In this document: positions 5,950 to 31,428 of the stretch, piece after piece
Layout: every line of letters starts with the position of its first letter
Position numbering within the stretch: the stretch's first letter is position 1
Assembly (NCBI GenBank): GCA_947628255.1
Contig: CANQZE010000003.1
Span: 1 to 33,353, forward strand
Direction: 5' to 3'
DNA: 33,353 nt
DNA from: an uncultured Clostridia bacterium
GTDB lineage: Bacteria; Bacillota; Clostridia; Christensenellales; CAG-917
The notes under the pieces: model-generated
The model's input: only the letters and a program-made list of their open reading frames with translations
The model's database searches: none
Told to the model about the DNA's origin: nothing
Position numbers and translations under genes: made by a program

Positions 5950-6522
5950 TCAGTGGCGGAATGTGAGGCTGTCGTCCGTCATCGACTCGATGATGGCGAG
6001 GCTCTCTACGCGCACGCCCCTCGCCCTAAGCTCCGCCCCGCCCGGCTGGAAGCCCTTCTCGATGGCGATCGCGCAACCGACAAGAGTCGCACCCGCCTGC
6101 TCTATCAGACTGACGAGGCCCTTCACCGCCTCGCCGCGCGCAAGAAAGTCGTCCACGATCAGGACTCTGTCCCCCGCGCACAAAAAGTCCTTATCCACGC
6201 AGATGGTGCTTTTTGCGCCGTGCGTGTAGGACATAACTTCCGCCGTGAAGCAGTTCGCCGAAATGTTGGACGTTTTGCTCTTTTTAGCAAAAAGCATCGG
6301 CGCGTGCAGATAGCGTGCCGCCGCACAAGCTATCGCTATGCCCGATGCCTCTATGGTAAGAATCTTTGTGACATTGTCGCCTTCGAAGCGCGCAGAAATT
6401 TCCTTACCTATCTCGTCAAGCAGACTCTCGTCTATCAAGTGGTTCAAAAATCCGCTGACCTTCAGGACCTCGCCCGGATAAACCTTGCCGTCCTTGAGGA
6501 TGCGCTCTTCAAGAAGCTTCAT
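5950..6522 (-). CDS. xpt: Xanthine phosphoribosyltransferase
   Basis: MKLLEERILKDG, LKVSGFLNH, ILTIEASGIA, FAKK, PRPP-binding motif VLIVDDFLARG and IEKGFQ. GGAGG RBS precedes ATG 6522. Confidence 0.93.
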   Translation of the reverse strand: MKLLEERILKDGKVYPGEVLKVSGFLNHLIDESLLDEIGKEISARFEGDNVTKILTIEASGIAIACAAARYLHAPMLFAKKSKTSNISANCFTAEVMSYTHGAKSTICVDKDFLCAGDRVLIVDDFLARGEAVKGLVSLIEQAGATLVGCAIAIEKGFQPGGAELRARGVRVESLAIIESMTDDSLTFRH

Positions 6523-6620
6523 ACAACCTCCGCTACGCGGTCTGAGCCAAAGCTCAGGTGAATTGCCGTACTGCCACATCACCGCCCAAAAGCTCTCGCC
6601 TTTGGAAAAATGATGAGAGA

Positions 6621-6650
6621 ATTATAATAAATCGCGCACGCCTCTGTCAA
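6621..6650 (-). promoter_or_regulatory. Sigma-A promoter of the xpt-BMP-ABC operon
   Basis: TTGACA-18 nt-TATAAT on the minus strand. Confidence 0.8.
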
Positions 6651-6717
6651 ACAATTTGAGGGCGTTATGACAAAAAATTTCAAAAAAACACAAAGAGTAT
6701 TTCCTACCGCCAAAAAT

Positions 6718-6773
6718 CGCCAAAATATGGATATCTTGCGTTTGAAAACTCCCCACCCCACAACATATTGTGT
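6718..6773. promoter_or_regulatory. Putative tandem NrdR-like boxes
   Basis: CCACAACATATTGTGT (6758-6773) fits the NrdR consensus acaCwAtATaTwGtgt. A weaker core CAAAATATGG (6721-6730) lies 40 bp away. Confidence 0.4.
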
Positions 6774-8813: not shown

Positions 8814-11561
8814 TTACGCCCTTTTGTTTTTGATACGCAACTTATCCTTGAGCGTATCGAAGAAATTTTTGACATCTATCTTGCCCTTGTTGTTGAGGAC
8901 GATGAGCGCGATGACCGCCGCCCAAACCGCCGCGAAGATGAACACGGTCCACCACCAACTGCCGATCAGATAGATCATAGTCGACACAATGTACGACGTC
9001 GCCACCCAAAATACGATCGTCCATCTGAAGGAACTCTTGCTCGGGGATTCCGCTTTGGCGGTCGCGACGGCGGCGAAACAAGGTATCGTGAGCATATTGA
9101 AAGCGATGAATGAGATGAGTGCGGGAGCCGTGATGCCCGTCGCGGAGATCATCTGCACGACGCTGTCCACGCCTTCGAGAGCTTCGTCTGCGACGAACGC
9201 GCTCGAAATACAAGCCGCCAAAGTGCCGAATGTGGCGATGACGTTTTCCTTTGCGATGAGTCCCGTGATCGCCGCGACCACAAACACCCATCCCCACTGC
9301 GCGCTGAGCTGACTGCCGAAACCGAGCGGCGTAAACAGAGGTCTGATGATGCTGCCCAAGCCCGCAAGTATGCTGTCTCCCATCTCGGCGTCCTCGAGAT
9401 ATTGCCAATTCCAGCTGAAGTGACTTATGAACCAGATGAATATCGTGGAGAGCAATATGATTGTGAACGCTTTTTTGACAAAGTGTTTTGTCTTATCCCA
9501 CAGGTGGATCATCAGATTTTTGAATTGAGGCGCGTGATATGCGGGCAACTCCATTATGAAGGGCGGGACGTCGCCTTTCATCGTCGTGTTGCGCATAAGC
9601 AACACGCAGCATATAGCCGTCACAATGCCGAGCAAGTACATACCGTATGTGATGAGGTCTGCGTTTGCGATCCCGAATTGCCGCACAAGCCCGCCCGCGA
9701 TAGCCGTGAGTATGGGCAACTTTGCGCCGCAACTGAAGAAGGGTATGACGCGTATCGTCGAGGTGCGCTCGTTTTGATCGGCGAGCGTACGCGTGTTGAT
9801 CATCGCGGGGACGGAACAGCCGAAGCCCATTATCATAGGCATAAACGCCCTGCCGCTAAGCCCGAAGCGACGGAATATTCTGTCCAGAATAAACGCCACG
9901 CGCGCCATATAGCCGCTGTCCTCGAGAATGGAGAAAAACAGGAAGAGCAAAAGAATCTGAGGCAGGAAGCTGAGTACCGCGAACAGGCCGCCGAAAATGC
10001 CGTCCACTATGAGGCCGCTCACCCACGGCGCCGCAGTTTTCAGCCCCTCGGCGATGCTCACGCTGATGAGATCGGTGAGTACGGTGAGCGAACTTTGAAG
10101 TATCACACCGGGCGAATACACTCCCTCCTCATATCCGAAGAAGGTATGCACGGTTATTTCTGAGAGATATTCGTCTATGCCGCTGACAAACTCGACGTCC
10201 GAAAACTCGCCGTTCTCGTCAGTAACGATGTTGACTTCATAGCCGTCAAGGTTAAAGAAGCGCTCATATTTGTTTCCATTCTCGTCGTACAGCTCAAGCA
10301 AATTGCCTTCGCCGTCCACAAGCGACATCAGCGCGGTTCCGTCCTTGTCATAGAATGTCTTTATCGGTTTATCCCCGTTTTTTGTGGCGTAGGCGTACGG
10401 CACTGTCTCAAGCCCTTCGAGCTTGCCGTCCTCGCCGATGACAAGTTCCGCCTCGTTGCCGTCCTCATCATAAAAGACGTCGTAGGGCTTGCCGTCCTTG
10501 TCGAACAGAGCGACTTGCTCGCCGTTTTCGTCGAGCAGGCTGTCAAGCAAAGTCCCGTCCGCGTCGAAATATTGCGTTATCGCTTCGCCGCGAGAGTCGT
10601 ATGCATAGGCGGTTTTGTCAAAAACTCCGCCCGCGCCAAGCCACAGCATATCCTCCGAGAATGTCAGATGGAAGATCAAAAACAGCACGACGATGAAGAT
10701 GGGAATGCCCCAGACCTTGTGCGTGAGGACCTTGTCCACCTTGTCGGAGACGGACAATTTTTGTCCTTCGCCTTCGGTATGTTTTTTGCGCTCGAGCGCG
10801 CCTGAATAGTTTTCGGAAATATATTTGTATCTGCTGTCGGCGACTATCGCCTCGAAATCACTGCCGAAAGTGTCGTCGTTGAAAGTGTGTTTGAATTCCT
10901 CAACCATCTTGGCGCTGTCGGGATGCATAGCGACTTCGATCTCGTCAAGCTCCACAAGTTTAATGGCGTGGAAGAGAGAATTTTCGACCTTCTGCCCCTC
11001 GAGAGCGATCTGACAGTCGCGGATCAGGTGCATAAGTTTTGTGCCGCTCAGCACAGTCGCGCCTTTTCTTGGATGTTTGCTCACCTCGTAGGCGCGTTGC
11101 ATAAGCTCGTCCAGTCCCTTTTCCTTGAGGGCAGAGATCGCCACGACGGGCAAACCTATTTTTGCCTCGAGCCGCGCGGGATCGATCTTGTCGCCGTTTT
11201 TTTCTACCGCGTCCATCATATTGAGCGCGATGACCATAGGCACGTCGATCTCCATAATCTGCGTAGTGAGATAGAGGTTGCGCTCGAGGTTGGTCGCGTC
11301 CACGATGTTGACGATGCAGTCGGGCTTCTCGTCAAGGATGAAATTCCTTGAAATGACCTCTTCAGGCGTGTACGGAGAGAGGGAGTAAATGCCGGGAAGA
11401 TCGACGATGGAAATTGGTTCCGCACACTTTTTGTAGACGCCGTCCTTCTTGTCGACGGTGACGCCGGGCCAGTTGCCGACGTGAGCGGTCGATCCCGTCA
11501 GCGAGTTAAAAAGAGTTGTTTTGCCGCAGTTTGGGTTGCCCGCAAGCGCAAACTTGATCAT
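8814..11561 (-). CDS. feoB: Ferrous iron transporter FeoB (with large insertion)
   Basis: GNPNCGKTT, GNWPGVTV, DLPGIYSL, NMMD, LEDSGYMAR, GFGCSVPA, FIMELPAY and AKENVI motifs. Confidence 0.95.
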   Translation of the reverse strand: MIKFALAGNPNCGKTTLFNSLTGSTAHVGNWPGVTVDKKDGVYKKCAEPISIVDLPGIYSLSPYTPEEVISRNFILDEKPDCIVNIVDATNLERNLYLTTQIMEIDVPMVIALNMMDAVEKNGDKIDPARLEAKIGLPVVAISALKEKGLDELMQRAYEVSKHPRKGATVLSGTKLMHLIRDCQIALEGQKVENSLFHAIKLVELDEIEVAMHPDSAKMVEEFKHTFNDDTFGSDFEAIVADSRYKYISENYSGALERKKHTEGEGQKLSVSDKVDKVLTHKVWGIPIFIVVLFLIFHLTFSEDMLWLGAGGVFDKTAYAYDSRGEAITQYFDADGTLLDSLLDENGEQVALFDKDGKPYDVFYDEDGNEAELVIGEDGKLEGLETVPYAYATKNGDKPIKTFYDKDGTALMSLVDGEGNLLELYDENGNKYERFFNLDGYEVNIVTDENGEFSDVEFVSGIDEYLSEITVHTFFGYEEGVYSPGVILQSSLTVLTDLISVSIAEGLKTAAPWVSGLIVDGIFGGLFAVLSFLPQILLLFLFFSILEDSGYMARVAFILDRIFRRFGLSGRAFMPMIMGFGCSVPAMINTRTLADQNERTSTIRVIPFFSCGAKLPILTAIAGGLVRQFGIANADLITYGMYLLGIVTAICCVLLMRNTTMKGDVPPFIMELPAYHAPQFKNLMIHLWDKTKHFVKKAFTIILLSTIFIWFISHFSWNWQYLEDAEMGDSILAGLGSIIRPLFTPLGFGSQLSAQWGWVFVVAAITGLIAKENVIATFGTLAACISSAFVADEALEGVDSVVQMISATGITAPALISFIAFNMLTIPCFAAVATAKAESPSKSSFRWTIVFWVATSYIVSTMIYLIGSWWWTVFIFAAVWAAVIALIVLNNKGKIDVKNFFDTLKDKLRIKNKRA

Positions 11562-11920
11562 TTTTTCACCTCCGCGGCGTCGGGAGACTCGCCTGCCTCG
11601 TTCATTTCGCTTTTTGGCGCCCTTGTCTCAAGCAAAACTTGGGCCGCCTCGCTCTTTCTCAAAGTCAGCTCATAATCGCGGATCGTCACCTCGAGGGGAT
11701 CGCCGAGCGGAGCTTTCTTTCTGAGATACACTTCCGCGCCGGGGGTCACGCCCATATCGAACAAGCGGCGCCTTATCTTGCCGTCGCCACCTATGCTCTT
11801 GATGACGCCCGATTGCCCGATGGAAAATTTGTCGAGATACATCGTCGTCTCGACAAGGTCTTCCTCGCGAGGAGCGACTTCGGACGTGGGTTTCGCCTTC
11901 TTTTTGAACAATTTCAGCAT
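11558..11920 (-). CDS. feoA: FeoA family protein
   Basis: RRRLFDMGVTPG..KAPLGDPLEVTIRDYELTLRKSEA. The true start may be the internal MYLD. Confidence 0.9.
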   Translation of the reverse strand: MLKLFKKKAKPTSEVAPREEDLVETTMYLDKFSIGQSGVIKSIGGDGKIRRRLFDMGVTPGAEVYLRKKAPLGDPLEVTIRDYELTLRKSEAAQVLLETRAPKSEMNEAGESPDAAEVKK

Positions 11921-11931
11921 TGTTGACTCCT

Positions 11932-12144
11932 TTATGCCACAAGTATTTTTGTCGCGATGTTTTTGTCCAGAGCGAGCCTTCCGTCCTTCACCATACAGAT
12001 GGTGCTTCCCCCGCTCTGAGAAATGATGCTGATCGTCGAGGATATCGTGATCCCCAGATTTTCGAGATGTTTTTTGGTTTTTTCGTCCGTCAAGATCCTG
12101 ACGATCCTCAGCTCTCTCCCAATCGGCGCGACAACAAGCGGCAT
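11932..12144 (-). CDS. feoA: FeoA family protein
   Basis: MPLVVAPIG..KKHLENLGI..VKDGRLALD..ATKILV, with GAGGAG RBS. Confidence 0.88.
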   Translation of the reverse strand: MPLVVAPIGRELRIVRILTDEKTKKHLENLGITISSTISIISQSGGSTICMVKDGRLALDKNIATKILVA

Positions 12145-13780: not shown

Positions 13781-14698
13781 ATGAAAATAAACATAACTCA
13801 AATCTCAAACATTATTAAAGACATTTACGGCAAATCGCCAAACTCCGTCAAATATCTCGGCGGAGGGTCTTTCGGGCGCGCGTTCAAAGTGAACGTAGAC
13901 GGCAAAACGCTTGTCGTCAAAGCGTTTTTGATCGACGGGTTGTGCGAAAAGGAAGCGCAGGAACTTGGCGTTTTGCGCAAGTATTGCCCCGTCAAGATCC
14001 CCGAAGTGTATTTTGTGCGGCTCAAAAAGGACGGCGCGCCGATAGAATGTTTCGGGATGGAACTCATCGAAGGGCGCGATTCTTTCACGAACTTCGCGCT
14101 GCTTTTCAAGCCGCGGAGGCAAAAACAGCGCTTTGCGGACGCCGTTTGCGACGCGCTCATAGAGCTACACAGCCACACCTCGCCCAAGTTCGGCGACATA
14201 TCGGACCCGCAATACGATTCGTGGCGAGACTTCTATTTCCCCTACGCGCAAAAAATTATGCAAGGCGCAGAAAAGCTGTATGCGGAGCGCCGCCTCAAAA
14301 AATACATCTACGATACGGCAAAAGCGCTGTGGACAAATTATGACCTCAGCTTCTGTGACGAAGTGAAAGAGGCGTGCCTCATCCACGGCGACGCCAACGT
14401 GATGAACATAATGACAAAAAAGCCGTTTGAACTTGTCGGATTCATCGATCCGCTGGACTCGATGTACGCGGACAGAGAGTACGAGCTTTTTCAGCTCCGC
14501 AACTTGACGGGCAACGCGTTCAGGCTGTACGAAACGTACAAGGCAAAATATCCCGTCTCTCCAAAATGCGACGTCAAGTGCGCGTTTTACGGCCTTTTCC
14601 ACGAGATAAATTGCTACCTTCGCAACGGCACCTACACGGGTTTCATAATGCGCGCCGCCGTAAAGCGCACAAAAGCGCAACTCAAAACATTGAAATGA
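13781..14698 (+). CDS. Aminoglycoside phosphotransferase/fructosamine kinase-like protein
   Basis: LGGGSFGRAF glycine loop, VVK, catalytic LIHGDANVMN and FIDP..ADREYEL. Confidence 0.8.
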   Translation: MKINITQISNIIKDIYGKSPNSVKYLGGGSFGRAFKVNVDGKTLVVKAFLIDGLCEKEAQELGVLRKYCPVKIPEVYFVRLKKDGAPIECFGMELIEGRDSFTNFALLFKPRRQKQRFADAVCDALIELHSHTSPKFGDISDPQYDSWRDFYFPYAQKIMQGAEKLYAERRLKKYIYDTAKALWTNYDLSFCDEVKEACLIHGDANVMNIMTKKPFELVGFIDPLDSMYADREYELFQLRNLTGNAFRLYETYKAKYPVSPKCDVKCAFYGLFHEINCYLRNGTYTGFIMRAAVKRTKAQLKTLK

Positions 14699-14752
14699 TT
14701 TTGCTCTCAAAAGAGTCGACGCTCAAGACTTTTGAAAAGAAAAACATATCTA

Positions 14753-14845
14753 CCTGTCGCCGCCCAAAACAGCGCGTGAAGATAATCAAATCGGAAAATA
14801 TTGTCCAACAACATCAAACGTCCGCCCAAATCGAGCGGACGTTTT
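14753..14845. repeat. Degenerate direct repeat, copy 1 (ends in a terminator hairpin)
   Basis: AAACGTCCGCCCAAATCGAGCGGAC (14816-14840) matches 15834-15858 at 24/25. 14753-14778 matches 15751-15776 at 21/26. Confidence 0.7.
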
Positions 14846-14856
14846 CGGGACCTAGA

Positions 14857-15237
14857 TCATTTTATGGTGTTTGAGTTCTGGTTGTACGCTTTTGCGACGC
14901 ATTTCCATTCGCCGTTCAGTTTCAAAAGGAGAAGGTAGTCGGTAAAGTCAATACTTCCGCCCCACCCTTCTTCCAGCACGCGCACAACGGCGAGCGTCTC
15001 TTCTACGGTTATGACGTCCACTCTCGCCTTGAAATTCTCGTCTGCGCCGACGGTATCAACGTTTTTGTAGAACTGCTCTATCGAACCGTGTTCAAGTTCG
15101 CCGTTGAGGATCCCGAACAAAACCGCTTCGTCTGTGAAAAGTTCCTTTGCGTACTTGCTGTTGCCCTCGGCTACGCTCTTGACGAAATTCATCGCCGCTT
15201 TTTCCACGTCTTGATAATCTTTCAATGTCGCTCTCAT
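14857..15237 (-). CDS. NTF2-like/putative lumazine-binding family protein
   Basis: 126 aa with FTDEAVLFG, FTDYLLLLKLNGEWKCVAKAY, and AGGAGG RBS. Confidence 0.8.
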   Translation of the reverse strand: MRATLKDYQDVEKAAMNFVKSVAEGNSKYAKELFTDEAVLFGILNGELEHGSIEQFYKNVDTVGADENFKARVDVITVEETLAVVRVLEEGWGGSIDFTDYLLLLKLNGEWKCVAKAYNQNSNTIK

Positions 15238-15352
15238 AAATGAGCCTCCTTAAAAATTTATTGACAAACAGATGTTAGCATTATATGATAAATATGTAAA
15301 GTACGCACATTTATGTATGGTACTTACTTTTTAGAAAGCATTGGAGAGAAAT

Positions 15353-15682
15353 ATGGAAAGGTGCATTTCAAACGAAAATCTTGCGGACACGGGGTTTTCT
15401 TACACATTATCCCTCATCAACGGGAAATACAAGATGACAATTCTCTACACGCTTATGGAGTTTTCCGTGGTGCGTTTCAATGAATTACAGCGTTATATCA
15501 AGGGTATCTCTTACAAGACATTGAGCGTAATGCTGAAAGAACTCGAAGCGGACAAATTGGTCGTACGTAAAGAATATCCTCAGATCCCGCCGAAAGTGGA
15601 ATACAGCCTCTCCGAGCGCGGAAAGTCGCTAATGCCCATTCTCGATATGATGTGCGAATGGGGCGATAAAAACAGATTATGA
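15353..15682 (+). CDS. HxlR-family winged-helix regulator
   Basis: LINGKYK..RFNELQR..ISYKTLS..LKELE..YPQIPPKVEYSLSERG. Confidence 0.92.
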   Translation: MERCISNENLADTGFSYTLSLINGKYKMTILYTLMEFSVVRFNELQRYIKGISYKTLSVMLKELEADKLVVRKEYPQIPPKVEYSLSERGKSLMPILDMMCEWGDKNRL

Positions 15683-15750
15683 AAACAGCAGTTGAAATTG
15701 CTCCCCATCGTCTTTTCATAATGCGTTACACGCGAAGGAAAACTCATCGC

Positions 15751-15860
15751 CCTACCGCCGCACAAAACAACGCATGCAAAATGAGCAAACCGTAACAATA
15801 TGACCAAATCGTAATTCTTTTCTCTGCGACATAAAACGTCCGCCCAAATCGGGCGGACTA
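15751..15860. repeat. Degenerate direct repeat, copy 2 (terminator hairpin for the MBL gene)
   Basis: Matches copy 1 as above. GTCCGCCC-AAATC-GGGCGGAC stem with a T-run on the minus strand. Confidence 0.7.
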
Positions 15861-15865
15861 TTTTA

Positions 15866-17389
15866 TCACTTTTGCTCGGCGGAAGTGTGCACTATTACGG
15901 TCTCGTCTGCATGCACGTGAAGTTTGAGCTTTTCAATGTCCTGCGCGGAGGCGTGCCCGCTCGTATGCAAGGTGCGCTCTGTAAGCCCCAACTCGCGCGC
16001 CGCGTCAAGAAATTGTTTGACGCTTGGCTGTTCGCGATATCCGCTCCACATCGAATAAATGAGTATGCCGCCCGAAATATCCGCCCTTTGCGCCAGCTTT
16101 TTGAGATAGGCTGTCATGGACGGGCGCACGAGCATCACATACTGGTCGCCCTTTGATATACCCGCGATGCCGCGTTTATTTTCTATCTCAAACAACATCT
16201 CCCTGCGTCTGCCCGTCACCCTGCGCGGAGTGAACGCATACACGCCTTTGAAAAAGTCGGGACGCGGTATGCTCCCGCCTGCCGCCGCCGCGATATGGCT
16301 TGTGTACACATCTTCATAGAATATACGCCCCGTGCGCTTTGCGGCGCGATAAAAGCTGACGATCCTGTCTATGTTCGAGGCGGATTGCAAAATGAATATC
16401 GGCTTATCCGTGCTCTTCATAAGCTCCACGGCGCGCATTTCAAGCTCCCTCTCCGAAAAGCAGGGCTTGTCGGAGCCGACATTCGTGCCCTCGGTGATCA
16501 GCGTATTTACGTGTTTTGGCAATCTCTCAAGCAACTTTTCGCCATTTTTGCGCCCATGAAAGCGGAAATCACCCGTGTAAAGCAAACTGCGCCCGCCCGC
16601 CTCGAAGAGGAGCATATAGCTATCATATGCCGAGTGGTCGCAAAGATATGGCGTAATTTTTATATTCCCGACCCACATCGGCTGACCGTCGCGATATGTT
16701 TTGATGTTGTCCCCAAGCGTCTTACCATCGTAGGCGCTCATCATGTCGAGTATGCGACGCGCGCCCGCTCCGACGAATACGGGGCAGTCACGCTTTTGCC
16801 CGATGAGACCCGCATGATCCGCATGATAGTGCGAAACTATGACGGCGTCATATTTTGTCGAAAGCACTTGCTTTTCCATATCGCTCGTCTCCTCGCCTCC
16901 GTCAAGCGCCTTGCCAAGCTCCACAAGCACCCTCGTCTCGCCCGAAGTGATCTCGATGAGGTTTTCGCCTATCTTGTCTCTGCCGCGCAATATCCTATAT
17001 TCAAGCTTTGGGACGGGCACGCCCCTCTTGCGTTTTGCAAACATGCTTACATAGCTCTTGTCTGGGTGGATAGTCGCGTCCTCGATGTCATAAAAATCGA
17101 ACAGTTCGTCGAGGTCGTCAAGGTCGAGGCACTCGTCGGCAAATATGCGATGCACGCCGCACTCGACGTCGTATGCTATTCTGCCGCGCGGATAAAAATC
17201 GAAAGGAACGTCCTTCCCTTCCCACGCGTCAAAATGCGAAAATGGATATTCTATAAGTCCCGCCTCGTTCGCAAGCTGTTTTGCCGCCGAAAAAGGATAC
17301 GATTTTTGATACGCTTCGAATTTCCATCCTCCCTCTTCCTCATCGGGTATCGCCCAAAAGATGCCAACTCTCACAAATTTCTGCTCCAT
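15866..17389 (-). CDS. RNase J-like MBL/beta-CASP hydrolase with an extra ~120 aa N-terminal domain
   Basis: SHYHADHAG, CDHSAYD, LLYTGDFRFHG, LITEGT, YSMWSGY, LHTSGHAS and VIVHT motifs. AAGGAG RBS precedes ATG 17389. Confidence 0.85.
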   Translation of the reverse strand: MEQKFVRVGIFWAIPDEEEGGWKFEAYQKSYPFSAAKQLANEAGLIEYPFSHFDAWEGKDVPFDFYPRGRIAYDVECGVHRIFADECLDLDDLDELFDFYDIEDATIHPDKSYVSMFAKRKRGVPVPKLEYRILRGRDKIGENLIEITSGETRVLVELGKALDGGEETSDMEKQVLSTKYDAVIVSHYHADHAGLIGQKRDCPVFVGAGARRILDMMSAYDGKTLGDNIKTYRDGQPMWVGNIKITPYLCDHSAYDSYMLLFEAGGRSLLYTGDFRFHGRKNGEKLLERLPKHVNTLITEGTNVGSDKPCFSERELEMRAVELMKSTDKPIFILQSASNIDRIVSFYRAAKRTGRIFYEDVYTSHIAAAAGGSIPRPDFFKGVYAFTPRRVTGRRREMLFEIENKRGIAGISKGDQYVMLVRPSMTAYLKKLAQRADISGGILIYSMWSGYREQPSVKQFLDAARELGLTERTLHTSGHASAQDIEKLKLHVHADETVIVHTSAEQK

Positions 17390-17428
17390 AATATTCTCCT
17401 TTTTTATAGGCTGCGGCTCGCGCCGCGC

Positions 17429-17457
17429 ATTATATACTGAAAACACATTCTCGTCAA
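17429..17457 (-). promoter_or_regulatory. Sigma-A promoter of the MBL gene
   Basis: TTGACG-17-TATAAT on the minus strand. Confidence 0.7.
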
Positions 17458-17519
17458 TATGTCAAGCAAATTTACATATTTTTTGAAATTTCTATCCTCA
17501 AATATACATATTGTAACTA

Positions 17520-17548
17520 CAAAACAACAGGCGGACCCGGTCCGCCCT
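17520..17548 (-). terminator. Putative terminator after the nuclease-like gene
   Basis: GGCGGACC-G-GGTCCGCC followed by TGTTGTTTT on the minus strand. Confidence 0.55.
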
Positions 17549-17552
17549 ATGT

Positions 17553-18539
17553 TCATTTACGCTCGGTGCCGTCCTTTTCGCAAAGATAAACCTTGACAGT
17601 GCGGGGGTCTTTGGGAACAAATTTCTTTCCGTCCTCGACCGCTGCGTCTGAAAATACGAATTTTATTTGCTCGTGTTTGATATTCTCGGGCGTGAGATTT
17701 TTTGGGTACGGTTTTTCAAACAGCTCGCATAAAAGTGCGACCGTAGCGCACGCCTCCTCTTTGCGTGCTTTCAGACGTTCTTCCGCGCCAGGGTTGTCAA
17801 GATATTTTTTATAGTTTTCTTCGTGATCTTCCACGCCCGACTCTCCTTTGAGCGCGTGTTTCGTGGACTTGAGTTCGGCCAAAATGAGCGTGTAGCTTCC
17901 GTCCTCTTCCGCCTTCAGCCCAAGCAGATCCACCCTTCCCGACACATCTTTCTCATTTGCGTGCGGCTCGGTGTACTCGATGTCGTAATACACAAGGTCC
18001 TCATGCAGAAAATACGCGGCATAAAGTTGTTGCTGACGGTCCTTTTCAATGTTGTGGGATTTAAGGTGCCACTCCTTGCGGTCAAAGGCGTATTCGGTTT
18101 TATTAGGATCCAAAAAATCGTCGATAAGCCCCTTATAAATGCCCAAAACCTCCTTCAACTTCTCTTCTCCAAATCCAATGAGCGGAAATCTGACATATCT
18201 TCTGCTTGTGCTTTTGCCTTTTTCGGTGTCCGCGTCCGAAAAATTTGAAATATCGACGCCCATCTCGCTCAGGCGGTCGAGTATCTCGCGATAATTTTTC
18301 GTGAAACGCGCGTGGCGAAAATCGAATTCTCCTATCAATCCGCTTGCGGAATTTCGTATCCTAAGCAGTTGATGCGAGCGATAATACAGCGTCGAAAAAT
18401 CGCCTCGGAAACAAAGCGCAACGCTTTTTTTCCCCTCATCGAGGTTTTCGCGCACATAATCCACTATGCGATCTCTCATCGGTGACTTCGTCGTAAAAAA
18501 CTTTTGTACTTCCCCAGTTAAAATACGATCGGTTTTCAT
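17553..18539 (-). CDS. Hypothetical protein with PD-(D/E)xK-like nuclease motifs
   Basis: EKDRQQQL..YDIEY..GRVDLLG..LILAELKS fits the E...D...ExK layout. N-terminal FRGDFSTLYYRS domain. Confidence 0.6.
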   Translation of the reverse strand: MKTDRILTGEVQKFFTTKSPMRDRIVDYVRENLDEGKKSVALCFRGDFSTLYYRSHQLLRIRNSASGLIGEFDFRHARFTKNYREILDRLSEMGVDISNFSDADTEKGKSTSRRYVRFPLIGFGEEKLKEVLGIYKGLIDDFLDPNKTEYAFDRKEWHLKSHNIEKDRQQQLYAAYFLHEDLVYYDIEYTEPHANEKDVSGRVDLLGLKAEEDGSYTLILAELKSTKHALKGESGVEDHEENYKKYLDNPGAEERLKARKEEACATVALLCELFEKPYPKNLTPENIKHEQIKFVFSDAAVEDGKKFVPKDPRTVKVYLCEKDGTERK

Positions 18540-18554
18540 TTTAGGATTTCCTCC

Positions 18555-18917
18555 TCAGATCTTTTTAAAACAGCTTGCGGTCTTTATGCCCGTGAGTTCG
18601 TCGTTAAACCAGCACGGCTCCGCCTCATACCCGCGGTATATAAACTTGTACAGGTATCCAAAACACGCCCCCATTCCGCGCTTTGCCGTCTGGGACATCT
18701 TTATCTTGAATACATCCTTGCCAAGAACATCTCGTTCGTAAATTACAAACGTCTTTAGCGGCGGCGCCCCAAGAACGTCGTTTGCAAAGCGGATGTGCTC
18801 AAGCAACGCCTCGTCCCCAAGTAGATCCAAAAACATGGCGTAATACTCCCGCTCTTCCGTTACAAAAGTCTCCGTGCCCTTATAGGTCCTCAAAAATTCG
18901 CTTTCATTCCAATTCAT
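18555..18917 (-). CDS. Hypothetical protein (~120 aa), possible autoregulator/accessory protein
   Basis: GAGG RBS 7 nt before ATG 18917. Stop is 15 bp upstream of the nuclease-like gene, so the two are probably co-transcribed. Confidence 0.7.
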   Translation of the reverse strand: MNWNESEFLRTYKGTETFVTEEREYYAMFLDLLGDEALLEHIRFANDVLGAPPLKTFVIYERDVLGKDVFKIKMSQTAKRGMGACFGYLYKFIYRGYEAEPCWFNDELTGIKTASCFKKI

Positions 18918-18985
18918 ATGCAAACCTCGATTTGTATATTCAAATTTGCATATTCTAATATATACCTAAAAAAATGAAATGTCAA
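18916..18985 (-). promoter_or_regulatory. Sigma-A promoter with overlapping palindromic operators
   Basis: TTGACA-17-TATATT. Half-sites ATATGCAAA/TTTGTATAT and ATATTCAAA/TTTGCATAT at 18916-18953. Confidence 0.65.
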
Positions 18986-19008
18986 TACTTTTTTTAAATT
19001 TTTTTGAT

Positions 19009-19944
19009 TTATCCCACCAAAATGTGCATATTTCTTAGTTCTGCGTTTTTTATCTGCTTTTGGAGGGCAAAGCCGAAGGGTTCCAGATAGTTGCCCTCGA
19101 GGTGCGCGAGGTTTTGCACGTCCAGCTCCTTTATGACGGCGTGGGCTATGTCCTCGACTATCTCCGTCTTGACCTTGCTTCCCTGATTGTCGTTGTCCGC
19201 GGTGAGAAGATACTCCAGCGGATCGGCGAGGTCGGACATAACGGGCAGCTCGCGAAGGGCGCGGAAGGTCCATTTGAAATAGGGACAATGCTTGCGGTTC
19301 AACAAAAATATCGTCTGCGCGGCGCACTTCACAAACTCCGTGAGCGCGAGCATAGCGGCGCCCTCCTCGCCGTGAGAGAGACAGCGCGGATAGTTGTATT
19401 GCCCCGTCTGCGCCATACGCACGATGTTTGCGGCGAGCTTTTTGAGGCGGACGTCCTCGGGCATTCCGTGCAAAATGTCGTTTCTGATCCGCGTGAATTC
19501 GCCGAGGTCGTCGCGGAAGATCTCTCCGTTTGTCGCCTCGGCGAGGTATTCGCTCTCCGTGAACAGCCAATCCCTCAGCGTGACGGGTGCGCCCTCGCTC
19601 CCCGTATAGCGGCGGTAGAAGTCGCCTATGATCTGCACTCCCTGCGAATTTGCGCCTATCGCGCTCGTATGCGCAAGGCGGGTCCCCGCGTATTCGGACT
19701 TGACTCTGTCGTACGCGCGCGTGAGGCGATATCCTATCTTCTCCTCGTCCTCGCGCGTGAGAAAGAGGCACAATCCCGTCTCGAAATCGTGATCGCGGGA
19801 GATATCGTCGTCATAGCCGAAGCACTCCGACCCGTGTCCGCAAAGCCCCACCGCGACGCGGGAAGCGTACGGCAAAAACTCCCTGTCCAACATTTCGGCG
19901 ACGGCCTCGTTGTAAAATTTTCTTGCTTCCTCAATACCCTTCAT
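19009..19944 (-). CDS. DUF4037 domain protein (Pol-beta-type nucleotidyltransferase-like)
   Basis: AVGLCGHGSECFGYDDDISRDHD, LAEATNGEIFRDDLG, AQTGQYNYPRC and PYFKW. Confidence 0.8.
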   Translation of the reverse strand: MKGIEEARKFYNEAVAEMLDREFLPYASRVAVGLCGHGSECFGYDDDISRDHDFETGLCLFLTREDEEKIGYRLTRAYDRVKSEYAGTRLAHTSAIGANSQGVQIIGDFYRRYTGSEGAPVTLRDWLFTESEYLAEATNGEIFRDDLGEFTRIRNDILHGMPEDVRLKKLAANIVRMAQTGQYNYPRCLSHGEEGAAMLALTEFVKCAAQTIFLLNRKHCPYFKWTFRALRELPVMSDLADPLEYLLTADNDNQGSKVKTEIVEDIAHAVIKELDVQNLAHLEGNYLEPFGFALQKQIKNAELRNMHILVG

Positions 19945-20033
19945 ATCTCAAAACACGTTGTTTATATCGCAATTTACAGCGCATAAAGTCAAGTTTGTGC
20001 GTAAACTGACATTTGTTTCGATCACAAAAATCC

Positions 20034-20840
20034 TCACGCCTCGCCGCCGTTTGCACGGTAGATCGCTTTTGCGCGCTCTTCAAGTTCCTTCTTAAAGAGG
20101 AAATATCCGTGATAGCCGCAGGCGTCCGCCACCTTCATACAAACGTTCGCGTACGGGCCGTTCTGCTGTGCGCCTTCGCCCGTGAGCGCGGCGTAGGCAC
20201 GCTCGATATACTCGTCCGCCCTTCCGTCGTCGTCATTGCCCGCCGCCGCGTTTTCGTCGTCGATAAGTTTTGCGAGATTGACGTATGTTATGGCGACTTC
20301 GTTGACGTTGTCCTGCGCCTTCAAAATGTCAAGCGCCTTCAGATAGTGCGCCCTCGCCCCGTCAAATTTGCCGAGATCCGCAAGCGCGGTCGCATAGTTG
20401 TTGTGATAGCCCGCAAGGCGGTAGTCGTTTGGCTCTAGCTCACGCTCGTACACCTCGCGCGCGATATCATAATATTTGAGAGCCTCTTCCGCCTTTCCGA
20501 AAGCCTTCATAGTGGTAGCGACATTCAGATATACGGTGGCGTCCGCGACGGTGATCTCCTCCTCGACGGCCAAAAGTGCCAGCGCTTGCTCGCAGGCGGA
20601 AAGTCCCTTTTTCTCGTCTCCCTCGCGGCGGTAGTGTCCGACTTCCTCGCTCAAAATGACAAGCAAGCCGCGGTCGTCGCCGAGCGATTTCGCCTCTTTT
20701 TCCCAATAGTCCAACACGCGTTCCATCCCCGCGCCGTCGTTTTTGGCGGCAAGCTCGTCCAGCCTCTCGATGACCCGCGCGACGGGGACATAGCCTTGCG
20801 GCTCCTTTGAACAACTTGTGCAAGCGTTTCTATCTTTCAT
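20034..20840 (-). CDS. Tetratricopeptide repeat protein
   Basis: Helical repeats ATVYLNVATT..AEEALKYY, AGYHNNYATA..ARAHYLKAL and AITYVNLA. Start chosen at MKDRN. Confidence 0.82.
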   Translation of the reverse strand: MKDRNACTSCSKEPQGYVPVARVIERLDELAAKNDGAGMERVLDYWEKEAKSLGDDRGLLVILSEEVGHYRREGDEKKGLSACEQALALLAVEEEITVADATVYLNVATTMKAFGKAEEALKYYDIAREVYERELEPNDYRLAGYHNNYATALADLGKFDGARAHYLKALDILKAQDNVNEVAITYVNLAKLIDDENAAAGNDDDGRADEYIERAYAALTGEGAQQNGPYANVCMKVADACGYHGYFLFKKELEERAKAIYRANGGEA

Positions 20841-20968
20841 ATCTCGCCTCTGAAAAATTTGAGGATATTCATATCCCCGTTTGGATATCAATTTGACGCG
20901 CCTTCGCTCGATTACGGCAAAATCTCCGCCCCCGACAACAAGAGCGCAGGATCTCCGCCCCTAGATCG

Positions 20969-22504
20969 TCATTCCCACTCTATGGTCGCGGGAGGCTTGC
21001 CCGTGATGTCATAGACGACTCTCGACACGCCCTTCACCTCGTTGACGATGCGCGATGAGACGACGTCAAGCGTCTCATAGGGGATGTGCGCGTACTCGCA
21101 AGTCATAAAATCCGACGTCTTGACGGCGCGCAATCCCAAAACATAGTTGTAGGTGCGCCCGTCGCCCATCACGCCCACTGTGCGCATATCCGTCAGCACG
21201 GCGAAAAATTGGTCATATGCGAGGCCCGCCTTGGCAAGCTCCTCTCTATAAATATAGTCCGCGTCGCGGAGTATGTCGAGGCGCTCCTTTGTGATCTCGC
21301 CTATGCAACGCACCGCAAGCCCCGGCCCCGGGAAAGGCTGACGGCTCACGAGGGTCTCGTCCAGCCCCAACCGCCTGCCGAGCGCGCGCACTTCGTCCTT
21401 GAAGAGATATCTGAGCGGCTCCACTATCCCGATGAATTTTGTATCCTTCGGCAATCCGCCGACGTTATGGTGCGATTTGATGACGGCGCCCGTCGTAAGT
21501 CCGCTCTCCACGACGTCGGGATATATCGTGCCTTGCGCGAGGAAACTTCCCGCGAATTTCGAGCTTTCCTCCTCGAATACGCGCACGAACTCCTCTCCGA
21601 TTATCTTTCGCTTGCGTTCGGGTTCCGTAACGCCGGCGAGCTTGCCTAAAAACCGCTTTTCTGCGTCCACGCGCACAAAGTTTAGCGATTTGCCCTTGAA
21701 GGCGCGCTCGATCTCGTCGCCCTCGTTTTTGCGCATCATTCCGTGATCGACAAATATGCAGGTGAGCTGCCCCGGTATCGCCTTTTCGAGAATGGCCGCG
21801 CACACGGAGCTGTCCACGCCGCCGCTGAGGCCCAAAACCACTTGATGATCGCCGACCTGCTCCCGAATCGCCTTGATCTGCTTTTCGATGACGTCGTCGA
21901 TGTTGTAGTCTCCCTTCGCTCCGCACACTTTGTAGAGGAAGTTGCGCAACAGTTTGGTACCTTCCCGCGTGCGCTCCACTTCGGGATGGAACTGCACCGC
22001 ATACAATTTTCTCGCCTCATCGCACATTGCCGCCGTCGGGCAATCCGCCGTATGAGCGACGCCTCTGAAGCCTTGCGGCACGCGCGCGACATAGTCGGTG
22101 TGCGACATCAGCGTGACCGTCTCGCTCTTCAGCCCGTCGAAGAGGGCGCAAGTCGGATCGTCATAGGTCGCCGACACGGTGCCGTACTCGCTGACCGCGC
22201 ACGGCTTGACTTCGCCGCCGAGAGTGTACGCCATAAGTTGCATACCATAGCAGATGCCGAGGATGGGGATCCCCATCTCAAACAGCTCCTTGACGGTGTG
22301 CGGAGAGTCCGCGGCGTACACGCTGTGAGGTCCGCCCGTCAAAATGATACCGATGGGCGCGATCTGTTTGAGAGCGTCGATCGGGGTGTTGCCCGCAAGT
22401 ATTTGCGAATGCACTTTGCACTCCCTCACGCGCCTTGCGATCAACTCTTTGTACTGCCCGCCGAAGTCGAGTACGACAACGGTCTGATTGTTTTCTGTTG
22501 ACAT
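20969..22504 (-). CDS. guaA: GMP synthase (glutamine-hydrolysing)
   Basis: [36 protein letters not shown] and KPPATIEWE. Confidence 0.97.
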
Positions 22505-22564
22505 AAAAGCCTCTTCAAATTGCGATTTTATATGTATAAACCCGCTTTTTGCGGGTTTACGCGT

Positions 22565-23836
22565 TTATCTGACTATGATCGCGTCGCGCTCCGCGCCGAC
22601 CGAGATATACTTGATTTTGCATCCGACCGACTTCTCGATGTACTCGATGTACGCTCTTGCCGCCTTCGGCAATTCCTCGTATTTGCGGCAATCTGCCGTG
22701 GAGCAATTCCAACCCTCGAGATATTCGATATTGGGCTTTGCGACGTTGAGCGCCTCGCCGGAGGGGAACTCGTCCACCGTCTTGCCGTTCACGCTGTAGC
22801 TCACGCACACGGGGATCTTGTCCATCCCGTCAAGGATGTCCAACTTTGTCAGCGCGATCTCGTCCGTCGCCTGCACCATACAACCGTATCTCGACGCGAC
22901 GACGTCAAAGCCTCCCACTCTGCGGGGACGTCCCGTTGCCGCGCCGTACTCGCCGCCCGCTTCTCTGAGCTTGTGCGCCTCTTCTCCGAACATCTCCGCC
23001 GTGAAGGGACCCTCGCCGACGCAGGTGGAGTACGCCTTCATAACGCCGATGGAGTTTTGCACTTTGCGGTTGGGTATGCCCGCGCCGATGGGACCGTACG
23101 CGGTGATCGTGGACGACGACGTCGTGTAGGGATAAATGCCGAAATCAATGTCCCTGAGCGCGCCGAGCTGTGCCTCGAGCATAACGTTTTTGCCCTCGTC
23201 AAGCGCCTTGTTGAGGAAGTATCCCGCGTCGCAGATGTAGTCTTTGAGCGGAGTCCCGTATTTTTCAAACCACTCGAGCATACCCTCGACGGTGTAGCCT
23301 TTCGCGCCGTAGCTTCCCTCTATGGTGAGGTTTTTCCACTCCACGATGGTCTCCAGCCTCGATCTCAGATATTCGGGGTGCAGGATGTCGCCCATTCTGA
23401 TCGCCTTTTTCATATATTTGTCAGCGTAGATGGGCGCGATGCCGCGGCGCGTGGAGCCGAATTTCTTGTCCGCGAGCCTGTCCTCTTCGAGGCAATCCTG
23501 CGCGACGTTGAACGGGCAACACACCACCGCTTTGTCGCTGATCTTGAGGTTTGCGGGCGTGATGACTATCCCCGCTTCCCTGAGGCGCGCAAGCTCCTTG
23601 GCGAGATGCTCGATGTCAATGACCATTCCTTGTCCCATCACGTTGATCTTGTCCTCGCGAAGTATCGCCGAGGGCAACAGATTGAGCACAAACTTGCCCT
23701 TATCGTTGATCACGGTGTGACCCGCGTTGTTGCCGCCCTGATATCTCACGACGATGTCCTGCGACTCGGCAAGCAGATCGACCATACGGCCCTTGCCCTC
23801 GTCGCCCCAGTTGATCCCTACAATTGAAGTAAGCAT
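22565..23836 (-). CDS. purA: Adenylosuccinate synthetase (divergent subtype)
   Basis: WGDEGKG, QGGNNAGHT, VGEGPF, EYGAATGRPRR and LTKLD. Confidence 0.93.
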   Translation of the reverse strand: MLTSIVGINWGDEGKGRMVDLLAESQDIVVRYQGGNNAGHTVINDKGKFVLNLLPSAILREDKINVMGQGMVIDIEHLAKELARLREAGIVITPANLKISDKAVVCCPFNVAQDCLEEDRLADKKFGSTRRGIAPIYADKYMKKAIRMGDILHPEYLRSRLETIVEWKNLTIEGSYGAKGYTVEGMLEWFEKYGTPLKDYICDAGYFLNKALDEGKNVMLEAQLGALRDIDFGIYPYTTSSSTITAYGPIGAGIPNRKVQNSIGVMKAYSTCVGEGPFTAEMFGEEAHKLREAGGEYGAATGRPRRVGGFDVVASRYGCMVQATDEIALTKLDILDGMDKIPVCVSYSVNGKTVDEFPSGEALNVAKPNIEYLEGWNCSTADCRKYEELPKAARAYIEYIEKSVGCKIKYISVGAERDAIIVR

Positions 23837-23902
23837 ATATTTGTCCCTCATCAAAAAATTATTTTCGTTTTTATGCTGTTCGCGCTTGTACCGCGCGTCC
23901 GC

Positions 23903-25345
23903 TCACACCTTGATGTCGTCCGTCTTGACAAACTTGTCCTTGTTTGCCTCGAGCAGAGGATCCACGACCTCGGCGACATATTCTTCCACCTGCTCCTTCG
24001 CCCTGCCCGTGAACTTTTTCGCGTCCACAAGGTCTTTGAGTTCGTCCTCGCTAAGCCCAAAAATCGGATCGTTCCCTATGCGTTCAAGCAGATCGTTTTC
24101 GCCGCCCTGCTCCTTTACGACAGCCGCCGCCGCGATGGAGTGTTTGCGGATCGCCTCGTGCAAAGTTTGCCTGTCGCCGCCCTTCTCGCTCACGCAATAC
24201 ATCAAGATGTTTTCCGTCGCCATAAAGGGCAACTCGCGAGCGAGATCCTTCTCGATTATGCGCGGATAGAGCTTCAGCCCGCTTATGATGTTGGCGTACA
24301 GCGCGAGAATCGCGTCCGTCGCAAGAAAAGCCTCGGGTATGGCGATGCGCCTCACGGCGCTGTCGTCAAGCGTGCGCTCAAACCACTGCGTCGCCGCCGT
24401 GATCGCGGGATTGAGCGTGTCCGTCATAACGTATCTCGCAAGCGAAGCTATGCGCTCGCTGCGCATCGGATTGCGCTTGTACGCCATCGCGGACGAGCCG
24501 ATCTGCCCCGCCTCGAAGGGTTCCTCCACCTCTTTCAAGTGGGAGAGCAATCTGATATCGTTGGAAAATTTCGCCGCGCTCTGAGCAATGCCCGCAAGCA
24601 CAGTCAGAATGTTGTAGTCCACTTTGCGCGTGTAGGTCTGCCCGCTTACGCTTACGCTGCCCGCAAAGCCCATCTTGTTTGCGATGAGTGCGTCGAGTTT
24701 TTTGACCTTGTCGTGATCGCCGTGGAAAAGCTCGAGAAAGCTCGCCGCCGTCCCCGTCGTCCCCTTGCACCCCAACAGGCGAAGCCTTTGAAGTTCGAAA
24801 TCGAGACTTTCGAGGTCAAGCACAAGATCCTGAAGCCACAGCGTCGCCCTCTTGCCGACCGTGGTTGGTTGCGCCGCTTGGAAATGCGTGTACGCAAGCG
24901 TCGCTACAGCCCTGTTTTGATAGGCGAAGTCTCTCACCGCCTTGATACAGCCGAGCAGCTCGCCGCGTATGAGTTCAAGCGCCTCGCGCATTTGTATGAC
25001 GTCCGTGTTGTCGCCCACAAAGCAACTCGTCGCGCCGAGATGTATGATGGGCATAGCCTTCGGACACGCCCTGCCGAACGTATGCACGTGCGCCATCACG
25101 TCGTGACGGACCTCGCGCTCCTTCTCGCGCGCAAAGTCATAGTCGATGTCATAGACGTGCGCCTTCATCTCCTCGATCTGCTCGTCCGTTATCGCGACGC
25201 CAAGCTCCTTTTCCGCCTCGGCGAGCGCGATCCACAGCTTGCGCCAAGTGCTGAACTTGAAATCGGACGAGAAGATATACTTCATCTTCTGTCCTGCGTA
25301 TCTCTCGCTCAGCGGCGATGTGTAAACATCCTTCGGCATATCCAT
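23903..25345 (-). CDS. purB: Adenylosuccinate lyase
   Basis: SPLSERY, RHDVMAH, IHLGATS, THFQAAQ and the fumarate-lyase signature GSSAMAYKRNP. GAGGTG RBS. Confidence 0.96.
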   Translation of the reverse strand: MDMPKDVYTSPLSERYAGQKMKYIFSSDFKFSTWRKLWIALAEAEKELGVAITDEQIEEMKAHVYDIDYDFAREKEREVRHDVMAHVHTFGRACPKAMPIIHLGATSCFVGDNTDVIQMREALELIRGELLGCIKAVRDFAYQNRAVATLAYTHFQAAQPTTVGKRATLWLQDLVLDLESLDFELQRLRLLGCKGTTGTAASFLELFHGDHDKVKKLDALIANKMGFAGSVSVSGQTYTRKVDYNILTVLAGIAQSAAKFSNDIRLLSHLKEVEEPFEAGQIGSSAMAYKRNPMRSERIASLARYVMTDTLNPAITAATQWFERTLDDSAVRRIAIPEAFLATDAILALYANIISGLKLYPRIIEKDLARELPFMATENILMYCVSEKGGDRQTLHEAIRKHSIAAAAVVKEQGGENDLLERIGNDPIFGLSEDELKDLVDAKKFTGRAKEQVEEYVAEVVDPLLEANKDKFVKTDDIKV

Positions 25346-25462
25346 TTTCCACCTCAAAAAAAGATTAAAAGCGTCCCTTAAAAGCAAAAAGTTCAGCCTT
25401 TTGAAACACTTTTACTCATACCGTCTATCCCAATATGTTATTTGGACAACTTGACCCTATAC

Positions 25463-31279: not shown

Positions 31280-31428
31280 AGTATTGCCGTATACCTACAT
31301 ATATTTTATCGCTCGCGCGTTCGCACGTGTGCAAAATTTTTGGGGTTTTATGCGGCCAATATGTCCGCAAGGCGGCTCTGCCGAGCGGCTCGGCGCCGAG
31401 ATGTGCGCGCCGAAAAAGGAGTATCTTT

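Follow-up and report, generated by a model that had tools for sequence, protein, structure and literature searches.

The window analyzed here, a 33,353-nt stretch of contig CANQZE010000003.1 (assembly GCA_947628255.1), belongs to a Clostridia genome from the rabbit gut (G000; 1.41 Mb). Between 15.8 and 19.0 kb, its minus strand contains a small gene encoding a 120-amino acid (aa) protein, a gene encoding a 328-aa protein and a gene encoding a 507-aa protein of the metallo-β-lactamase (MBL) type. Promoters and terminators were called by consensus scan, and this 3.3-kb cassette was found to possess two of each (Table 1). The open reading frame (ORF) of the small gene spans 18555-18923 overall, and the longest MBL frame (15866-17446) opens at GTG 17446. 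An earlier note, made from the letters of the window, had described three co-oriented, non-housekeeping genes in a variable region downstream of the purine operon, and had proposed them as an undescribed anti-phage locus built from a small protein, a PD-(D/E)xK-like nuclease and an RNase J-like MBL nuclease. The three genes do lie together downstream of the purine genes, with one TPR and one DUF4037 gene in between.

Table 1. Coordinates of the cassette genes, their predicted transcription signals and the conserved palindrome.
Feature	Position in window	Strand	Details
Promoter of small gene + 328-aa gene operon	18957..18985	-	TTGACA, 17-nt spacer, TATATT; score 11/12
18-bp palindrome, putative operator	18936..18953	.	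ATATGCAAATTTGAATAT; a few bases past the -10; conserved in alignment
Small protein, 120 aa	18555..18917	-	ATG 18917; GAGG eight bases upstream
328-aa protein	17553..18539	-	GGAGG upstream
Intrinsic terminator-like hairpin after 328-aa gene	17529..17547	-	signal scan
Degenerate palindrome copy	17462..17479	.	ATATGTAAATTTGCTTGA on the minus strand; 3 mismatches, one half intact
MBL promoter	17429..17457	-	TTGACG, 17-nt spacer, TATAAT; score 11/12
507-aa MBL/β-CASP protein	15866..17389	-	ATG 17389; AAGGAG upstream
Terminator-like hairpin after MBL gene	15838..15858	-	hairpin when read on either strand
Cassette extent as indel	15698..19007	.	missing from G017, where DUF4037 and hxlR likewise form the flanks

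Alignment of the 507-aa protein with 29 homologs showed that the HxHxDH motif (H187/H189/D191/H192), H252 and D274 (TGDF) are invariant, as are H479 (HTSGH; HTSGHA) and H501 (VHT), and that E300 is nearly so; the HxHxDH, TGD and HTSGH motifs read previously from the window are thereby real. The protein has the HxHxDH motif with the downstream His and Asp of an MBL, together with an acidic residue at β-CASP motif A (E300) and His at motifs B (H479) and C (H501). By its motifs, it is a predicted β-CASP metallo-nuclease in which all metal-binding and β-CASP motifs have been kept. Pfam detected only Lactamase_B_2 (34.3 bits; cut-off, 27) and Lactamase_B, and PHROGs v4 nothing more specific than a generic metal-dependent hydrolase. 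NCBIfam gave weak matches to RNase J (E 4.9e-11) and aCPSF1 that were far under the cut-offs, and the models of RNase J proper (TIGR00649, NF047419) were missed at 41.7 bits versus 400 and 38.1 versus 820. The nearest solved sequences were those of the uncharacterized Enterococcus faecalis protein EF2904 (PDB 2az4, E 1.4e-8), archaeal CPSF and RNase J, all covering MBL residues 123-360. RMMBL passes its cut-off in three relatives (P0135, L040, L045). The family is large, with at least 1789 matches at E ≤ 0.001 among 8000 scored.

Residues ~1-125 of the MBL protein form a separate, conserved N-terminal accessory domain with the motifs GIFW and YPRGR. In a word-indexed search, this domain occurred with this MBL family alone (23/23; proteins of 278-888 aa). 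It is missing in five loci (L012, L014, L017, L018, L020) and is encoded after the MBL core in two others (L045, L048). The ESM Atlas yielded no usable match for it. A 158-aa neighbor in Rhizobium and a 124-aa neighbor in Sphingomonas resemble the domain at the level of motifs only (E 0.13-1.0).

Searches of Pfam, NCBIfam and PDB profiles with the 328-aa protein found no match, and its sole PADLOC match was Cas4 (E 0.0016). Relatives numbered 42 at E ≤ 0.001 among 1906 candidates, none of them named. The nuclease-like motifs noticed earlier are genuine, with E165, D186 and E188 (DIEY), D204 (RVDLLG), and E222 and K224 (AELK) invariant in 21 homologs. In an AlphaFold model that used 21 relatives as the alignment (pLDDT 93.9), these residues map to the helix and strands where the catalytic residues of the superfamily sit. 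The model contains a restriction-endonuclease-like α-β-β-β-α-β core and the catalytic D...(D/E)xK, with the α-β-β-β order canonical, D204 in strand 2 and E222-x-K224 in strand 3. When residues 160-328 were compared with VIA-align, most of the top 50 rows were PD-(D/E)xK nucleases, including the C-terminus of Upx (Z 9.2, rmsd 3.2, 125 aligned), NucS (Z 8.3), AF1548 (7.8), HamA (7.1), Card1 (6.8), Can2 (6.5) and SduA (4.9), and many type II enzymes were matched as well. A Foldseek search of the model against the PDB had no match at E ≤ 0.001. The predicted structure supports the PD-(D/E)xK assignment of the earlier note and places, in residues 160-328, a predicted nuclease domain with its D...ExK intact. 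The N-terminal domain (residues ~1-150) resembles YjbR/DUF419/YdhG and the C-terminal domain of T4 MotA at Z ~7. It is possibly DNA-binding, which we treat only as a lead since Z values of ~7 fall in the range of common arrangements.

The small protein is the best conserved of the three, with 47-76% identity to 21 of 22 homologs and 26-30% to the most distant one, encoded in genome G047. Its predicted structure (pLDDT 96.5) is a bundle of six helices followed by a C-terminal β-hairpin, in which no helix-turn-helix (HTH), ribbon-helix-helix (RHH) or WYL fold is recognizable. Foldseek against the PDB and a viral library returned no match at E ≤ 0.001, and the ESM Atlas no usable one; absence of a fold match is not proof of a new fold. 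The G047 homolog, a 153-aa relative, is part of a distant cassette (L033, G047:C85, 1375-3239) that also encodes an unrelated 158-aa protein and an MBL core without the N-terminal domain, and in which no palindrome of the kind described below was found.

Genes in related loci were called with a longest-ORF script, which is not a gene finder. A profile of the 328-aa protein found 17 genome loci, mostly in metagenome-assembled genomes of rabbit-gut Clostridia, and an MBL homolog was directly downstream of the 328-aa homolog in every one of them, both genes being fragments in L022. The small gene precedes in 12 of the 17, and four loci (L008, L011, L017, L018) have both nucleases without it. Starting from the small protein, 20 metagenome loci were found, and the MBL gene follows in 10. 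Eight others are on contigs that end within 1.7 kb, and the remaining two contain a 54-residue small-gene fragment. In these two loci (L056:7001-7162 and L057:225-386), the small gene is reduced to its first 54 codons and nuclease genes are absent; both look like remnants of lost cassettes. In-frame fusions of the 328-aa protein to MBL occur in L018 (an ORF of 703 aa), P0103 (704 aa) and P0102. The small domain is found in fusions too: with MBL and a DnaE fragment in P0166, at the C-terminus of a REase-ARP/PDDEXK_13 nuclease in P0309, and with DUF1643 in P0210 and P0223. Co-occurrence, which the earlier note had called for as a check, is thus borne out, and adjacency and fusion indicate that the three genes probably constitute one functional unit.

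The middle gene of that unit varies. A second, unrelated PD-(D/E)xK-like gene (~230-260 aa, D...ExK...QxxY) is added in 7/16 genome loci and takes the place of the 328-aa gene in several metagenome loci; Sel1-repeat genes or N-terminal Sel1 fusions also occur among the cassette loci. Because of this variation, and because the MBL family (1789) far exceeds the 328-aa family (42), the core of the cassette would appear to be the MBL and the small protein, with the 328-aa nuclease as one of several interchangeable partners.

When the 140 bases that precede the small gene were aligned for 12 loci, an invariant TTGACA and a -10 were seen, followed by the palindrome ATATGnAAATTTnCATAT. In the window, 4 nt separate the end of the degenerate copy from the -35 of the downstream MBL promoter, and better second copies were seen at the equivalent place in other loci. 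When up to two mismatches were allowed, 45 matches were counted in 74 kb of cassette spans versus 5 in 238 kb of flanks (0.61 and 0.021 per kb), a ~29-fold enrichment in cassettes. In 19 of 31 loci the small gene is preceded by a copy at a distance of no more than 80 nt, and a further copy occurs before MBL or another internal gene in 14 of 21. There were no matches in the four loci that have intact nuclease genes and lack the small gene. The copy before the small gene is the sole perfect site in the 1.41-Mb genome. A global regulon was also considered for the palindrome and was rejected, as the only match with a single mismatch is an unrelated AT-rich stretch. The palindrome therefore appears to belong to the cassette and to track the small gene, independently of the nuclease partner and of the MBL N-terminal domain. 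Given the location of the palindrome at cassette promoters, its enrichment in cassettes and its absence wherever the small gene is lacking, we regard the small protein as a putative operator-binding repressor or DNA-recognition subunit, and probably a repressor. The earlier note had cautioned that the MBL gene has its own promoter and follows a terminator, which is the case; both promoters carry the same conserved palindrome, which answers that caveat and suggests that the two transcription units are probably co-regulated.

That separate promoter and the preceding terminator are nonetheless what would be expected if the MBL were an ordinary RNase J-like RNA-processing paralog, with the other two genes as chance neighbors. 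The weak NCBIfam match to RNase J, the weak PDB matches to RNase J and CPSF, and the His at motif C are of the same tenor. We consider this explanation very improbable, as it is contradicted by the adjacency to the 328-aa homolog in all 17 loci and by the fusions of MBL to that homolog and to the small domain. The scores against the curated RNase J models, the absence of the MBL gene from 56 of 61 relatives and the palindrome shared by both promoters argue in the same direction.

A small, conserved first gene with palindromic operators also resembles the autoregulated operons of toxin-antitoxin systems. The cassette could accordingly be pictured as a selfish addiction element with toxic nucleases that the small protein neutralizes or represses, in which case loss would kill and the host would gain nothing. 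Movement of the cassette without a recombinase of its own and the decayed copies (L022, L056, L057) are compatible with such a lifestyle. Retention of both nucleases in four loci that lack the small gene is hard to square with an essential antidote and weakens this explanation, and further points against it are the fusion of the small domain in cis to nucleases and the apparently clean loss of the cassette from a sister species (below). We judge it to be distinctly improbable, bearing in mind that it overlaps with defence by abortive infection and does not exclude it.

The distribution of the cassette is patchy. Among 61 relatives, the 328-aa protein is present in 3, and the MBL and small proteins are each present in the same 5. 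Among 400 evenly drawn class-level genomes, the small-protein profile detected one, namely G000 itself, with one further genome not scorable. The description of the genes as non-housekeeping agrees with these counts, and the variable region proved to be one in the literal sense. In the sister species G017, the TPR, DUF4037, hxlR, lumazine-binding, APH and DUF2461 genes occur in the same order and the cassette is absent, with 55 bp in place of the entire indel listed in Table 1. The sequence of these 55 bp is similar to the small-gene promoter between its -35 and -10, which hints that the cassette was deleted from G017 rather than inserted in G000. Of 41 genomes of the genus, 34 have the DUF4037 gene that forms the left flank. 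This gene (311 aa) and the TPR gene (285 aa) make up a conserved pair at 19009-20891, and the two occur together in G007, G008, G017, G023, G024 and the window.

Among the 17 genome loci, the flanking genes of the window cassette recur solely in the near-identical G008, and flanks otherwise differ between loci. G008 is a different species-level genome, and its DNA is 99-100% identical to the window over ~15.9-19.2 kb, compared to 76-95% on one side of the cassette and 91-98% on the other. This step in identity fits a recent exchange of the cassette. A diverged copy is carried by G007 on another contig and in another context (328-aa protein 54%, MBL 68% and small protein 76% identity). The cassette does not include a recombinase gene. 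Four loci (L013, L041, L042, L051) have serine recombinases, a fragment of rve or of a replication protein, or WYL genes within 7 kb. Plasmids of Proteobacteria, Butyrivibrio and Prevotella, 11 in all, carry more distant MBL relatives (27-35% identity). One on a Rhizobium plasmid adjoins restriction-modification genes, one on a Prevotella plasmid adjoins a WYL gene, a 3′-5′ exonuclease and two DUF262 genes, and one on a Cereibacter plasmid lies between Tn3-family and TniB/TniQ genes. When the 328-aa profile was aligned by hhalign with ~320-aa neighbors of plasmid MBLs, the probabilities were low (35% and 11%) and only the D...ExK core was covered; homology is not claimed. A tblastn search of 50,697 phage records with the MBL protein found no match, and scans of IMG/VR with the small-protein and 328-aa profiles found no relative. 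Taken together, the data portray the cassette as a rare element that is evidently horizontally mobile and gained or lost as a 3.3-kb unit, a patchy pattern of horizontal transfer that is also that of defence systems.

Two intact predicted nucleases, exchangeable effectors and adaptors, a repressor-like component, rarity, exchange between species, and carriage of relatives on plasmids and beside transposons are best fitted by a role in defence. We therefore tentatively favor, at somewhat less than an even chance, the view that the cassette is a self-contained, mobile, self-regulated nuclease system whose most likely function is innate immunity against foreign DNA, whether of phage or plasmid. 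In such a system, the small protein would bind the palindrome and hold both promoters repressed until a signal from invading or damaged DNA triggered the nucleases, which would act in sequence. The PD-(D/E)xK enzyme would bind and either nick or cut, and the β-CASP enzyme would then degrade from the ends, so that the foreign nucleic acid is destroyed or the infected cell arrested. A more specific proposal, which we regard as possible but doubtful, is that of an undescribed immunity family with a β-CASP nuclease core and a small DNA-recognition protein of new fold. That protein would act as a repressor via the palindrome and also as a domain that plugs into effectors of several exchangeable types (PD-(D/E)xK nucleases of two kinds, DUF1643, Sel1 adaptors or a domain derived from DnaE), and the family would spread without its own recombinase between Clostridia, Bacteroidota and Proteobacteria.

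Several observations weigh against an immune function. A His at β-CASP motif C is an RNA-type signature, and this His is invariant in the 29 homologs; the MBL may act on RNA, as in the DNase/RNase pair put forward in the earlier note, or on DNA, to which its partners and fusions point. We infer DNA binding by the small protein from correlation alone, and VIA-align of its model matched no known DNA-binding domain (best Z 4.3). In PADLOC-DB v2.0.0, the small and MBL proteins were unmatched and the 328-aa protein had only the Cas4 match given above; in 16 related loci no cassette protein matched at E ≤ 1e-5. Within the window, no defence or mobile genes were found near the cassette. The neighbors in the 16 genome loci are mostly housekeeping genes, and PADLOC matches in the flanks are look-alikes (ABC-F, PcrA, ClpB, IscS, ThiF, HIT). 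A plausible defence neighbor was seen in 2 of the 16, a count with no background control: an LmuA-like MBL in L013 and PDC-M26A in L022. In these loci, enrichment near restriction-modification or abortive infection systems, which the earlier note had named as a check, was not seen; some of the plasmid relatives do adjoin restriction-modification, DUF262 or WYL genes. In L022, the decayed cassette (6001-6723), in which the 328-aa and MBL genes are fragmentary and the small gene is absent, is 2.5 kb from a McrBC-like pair (9225-12068) made up of the AAA_5 protein that matches PDC-M26A and a DUF2357 protein.

A further counterweight comes from DnaE-derived domains, which are fused to or adjoin MBL in at least five arrangements and point equally to DNA repair or synthesis. 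C-terminal DnaE fusions were found in L010:4285-6744 (819 aa) and L013:7851-10271 (806 aa), and 8 of 120 MBL homologs among the matches listed are 806-877 aa in length with such a fusion. L041:10171-14178 encodes a 1335-aa protein in which MBL is fused to a PHP-containing DnaE, and L051:1300-4464 a 1054-aa protein with an N-terminal DnaE-derived fusion. The DnaE-derived piece is a separate 416-aa gene in L049 (1984-3234), and a full-length dnaE lies 70 nt downstream in L021 (7051-12249). DnaE-linked MBL proteins include P0045, P0060, P0076 and P0166. In addition, genes for PcrA/UvrD, RadA or DinB-type polymerases neighbor the cassette in some loci. A metallophosphoesterase gene is directly 3′ of the MBL gene on two plasmids, from Prevotella (L078, 6455-7024) and Cereibacter (L079, 6209-6853), a pairing that resembles the ligase-associated DNA-damage-response operon of Proteobacteria.

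These associations, together with the scant defence-island context, are the basis for an alternative in which the cassette is an accessory module for DNA repair or end processing, with a way of life like that of repair cassettes that occur sporadically and spread horizontally. Damaged or structured DNA, for instance crosslinks, hairpins or blocked ends, would be processed by the PD-(D/E)xK and β-CASP enzymes, the DnaE-derived domain of the larger variants would fill in, and repression by the small protein would respond to damage. Most of the DnaE pieces are PHP-less, however, and span positions 3 to ~136 of 260 of Pfam DNA_pol3_alpha and part of the finger domain; lacking about half of the palm/thumb profile, they may not polymerize, and the window cassette has no DnaE part at all. 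No ligase or helicase was found as a conserved partner, and the swapping of the nuclease partner between unrelated PD-(D/E)xK types is more typical of conflict systems. The extreme rarity of the cassette at class level, its exchange between species and the location of distant plasmid relatives beside transposon and restriction-modification genes also speak against repair, which we hold to be a rather unlikely explanation.

Innate immunity thus remains our preferred, if tentative, interpretation of the cassette. As a whole, the earlier proposal was partly upheld: the three genes are rare and co-occur, they are not core genes, the 328-aa protein has a predicted nuclease fold and no described system was matched, so that none of the outcomes named there as refuting it was observed. 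Enrichment near defence systems was not seen in the 16 genome loci. If the cassette does function in defence, the known repertoire would gain a β-CASP nuclease effector that is not part of CRISPR type VII, and with it a new fold for a small regulator or recognition protein, whose 18-bp site is defined and directly testable. If it functions in repair, the repeated union of β-CASP and truncated DnaE would represent a new kind of bacterial DNA-processing machine. In either event, the cassette fits into 3.3 kb, promoters and terminators included, and a unit this compact could be transferred unchanged to a model host.

Outside the cassette, the upstream purine genes are those for adenylosuccinate lyase, adenylosuccinate synthetase and guaA (20969-25387). 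Downstream are hxlR, a lumazine-binding-like gene, an APH-family kinase gene and a DUF2461 gene. An Rfam scan of 14500-20500 gave no match. Matching DNA was present in 8 sequencing runs, all from rabbit gut metagenomes of 2 studies, with no RNA run listed. Large BspA-type leucine-rich-repeat surface proteins, unrelated to the cassette, are encoded at 31327-33351 of the window and at L014:12379-12939 and L020:2421-5474, and recur across these gut Clostridia genomes.

No curated model in Pfam, NCBIfam release 20, PADLOC-DB v2 or PHROGs v4 names this gene combination, in agreement with the earlier failure to match it to a named system. Nor was it found in the literature on β-CASP nucleases and phage defence, MBL anti-phage nucleases, DUF1643 and REase-fold conflict systems, insofar as that literature lies outside subscription journals and supplements. 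Within the same scope, the matches concern CRISPR type VII or subjects without a bearing on the cassette, Avs2-trypsin-MBL, the description of a phage, and CoCoNuTs, and those listed for DUF1643 mostly staphylococcal genomes and mobile elements or phages; a literature search for REase-ARP found no paper.

The cassette MBL shares with the β-CASP nucleases (RNase J, CPSF-73/aCPSF1, SNM1/Artemis) the MBL motifs, β-CASP motifs A, B and C and, in some homologs, an RMMBL tail. It differs in falling far under the curated cut-offs of RNase J and aCPSF1, in its dedicated N-terminal domain, in being rare and mobile rather than core, and in always being paired with a PD-(D/E)xK gene. Residues 160-328 of the 328-aa protein share their fold with Upx, NucS/EndoMS, HamA, Card1/Can2, SduA and type II restriction enzymes, whereas the protein lacks sequence-level membership in any of these families, has a YjbR/DUF419/MotA-CTD-like N-terminal domain and is partnered by an MBL nuclease instead of a helicase, CARF domain or methyltransferase. 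Pfam and PADLOC gave no match at E ≤ 0.001 to Shedu (DUF4263), Hachiman HamA (DUF1837) or Cas4, and the structural likeness to HamA and SduA is one of superfamily-level fold only.

The cassette also invites comparison with regulated multi-gene modules. Like type II toxin-antitoxin and WYL-regulated modules, it has a small first gene and promoter palindromes, and WYL genes lie near distant MBL relatives, but its small protein lacks an HTH, RHH or WYL fold and doubles as a domain inside nucleases. The ligase-associated DNA-damage-response operon of Proteobacteria consists of a β-CASP exonuclease, the metallophosphoesterase PdeM, a ligase and an Lhr-like helicase. The likeness lies in a β-CASP nuclease within a sporadic multi-gene cassette and in the metallophosphoesterase of the two plasmid relatives; no ligase or helicase partner was seen in any cassette locus, however, the window cassette has no phosphoesterase, and the MBL did not match the NCBIfam model of the ligase-associated exonuclease family at E ≤ 0.01. 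Taken as a whole, we rate the kind of element, a nuclease-based accessory cassette, as already known, and the fold of the small protein, the operator and the β-CASP/DnaE fusions as what is new.

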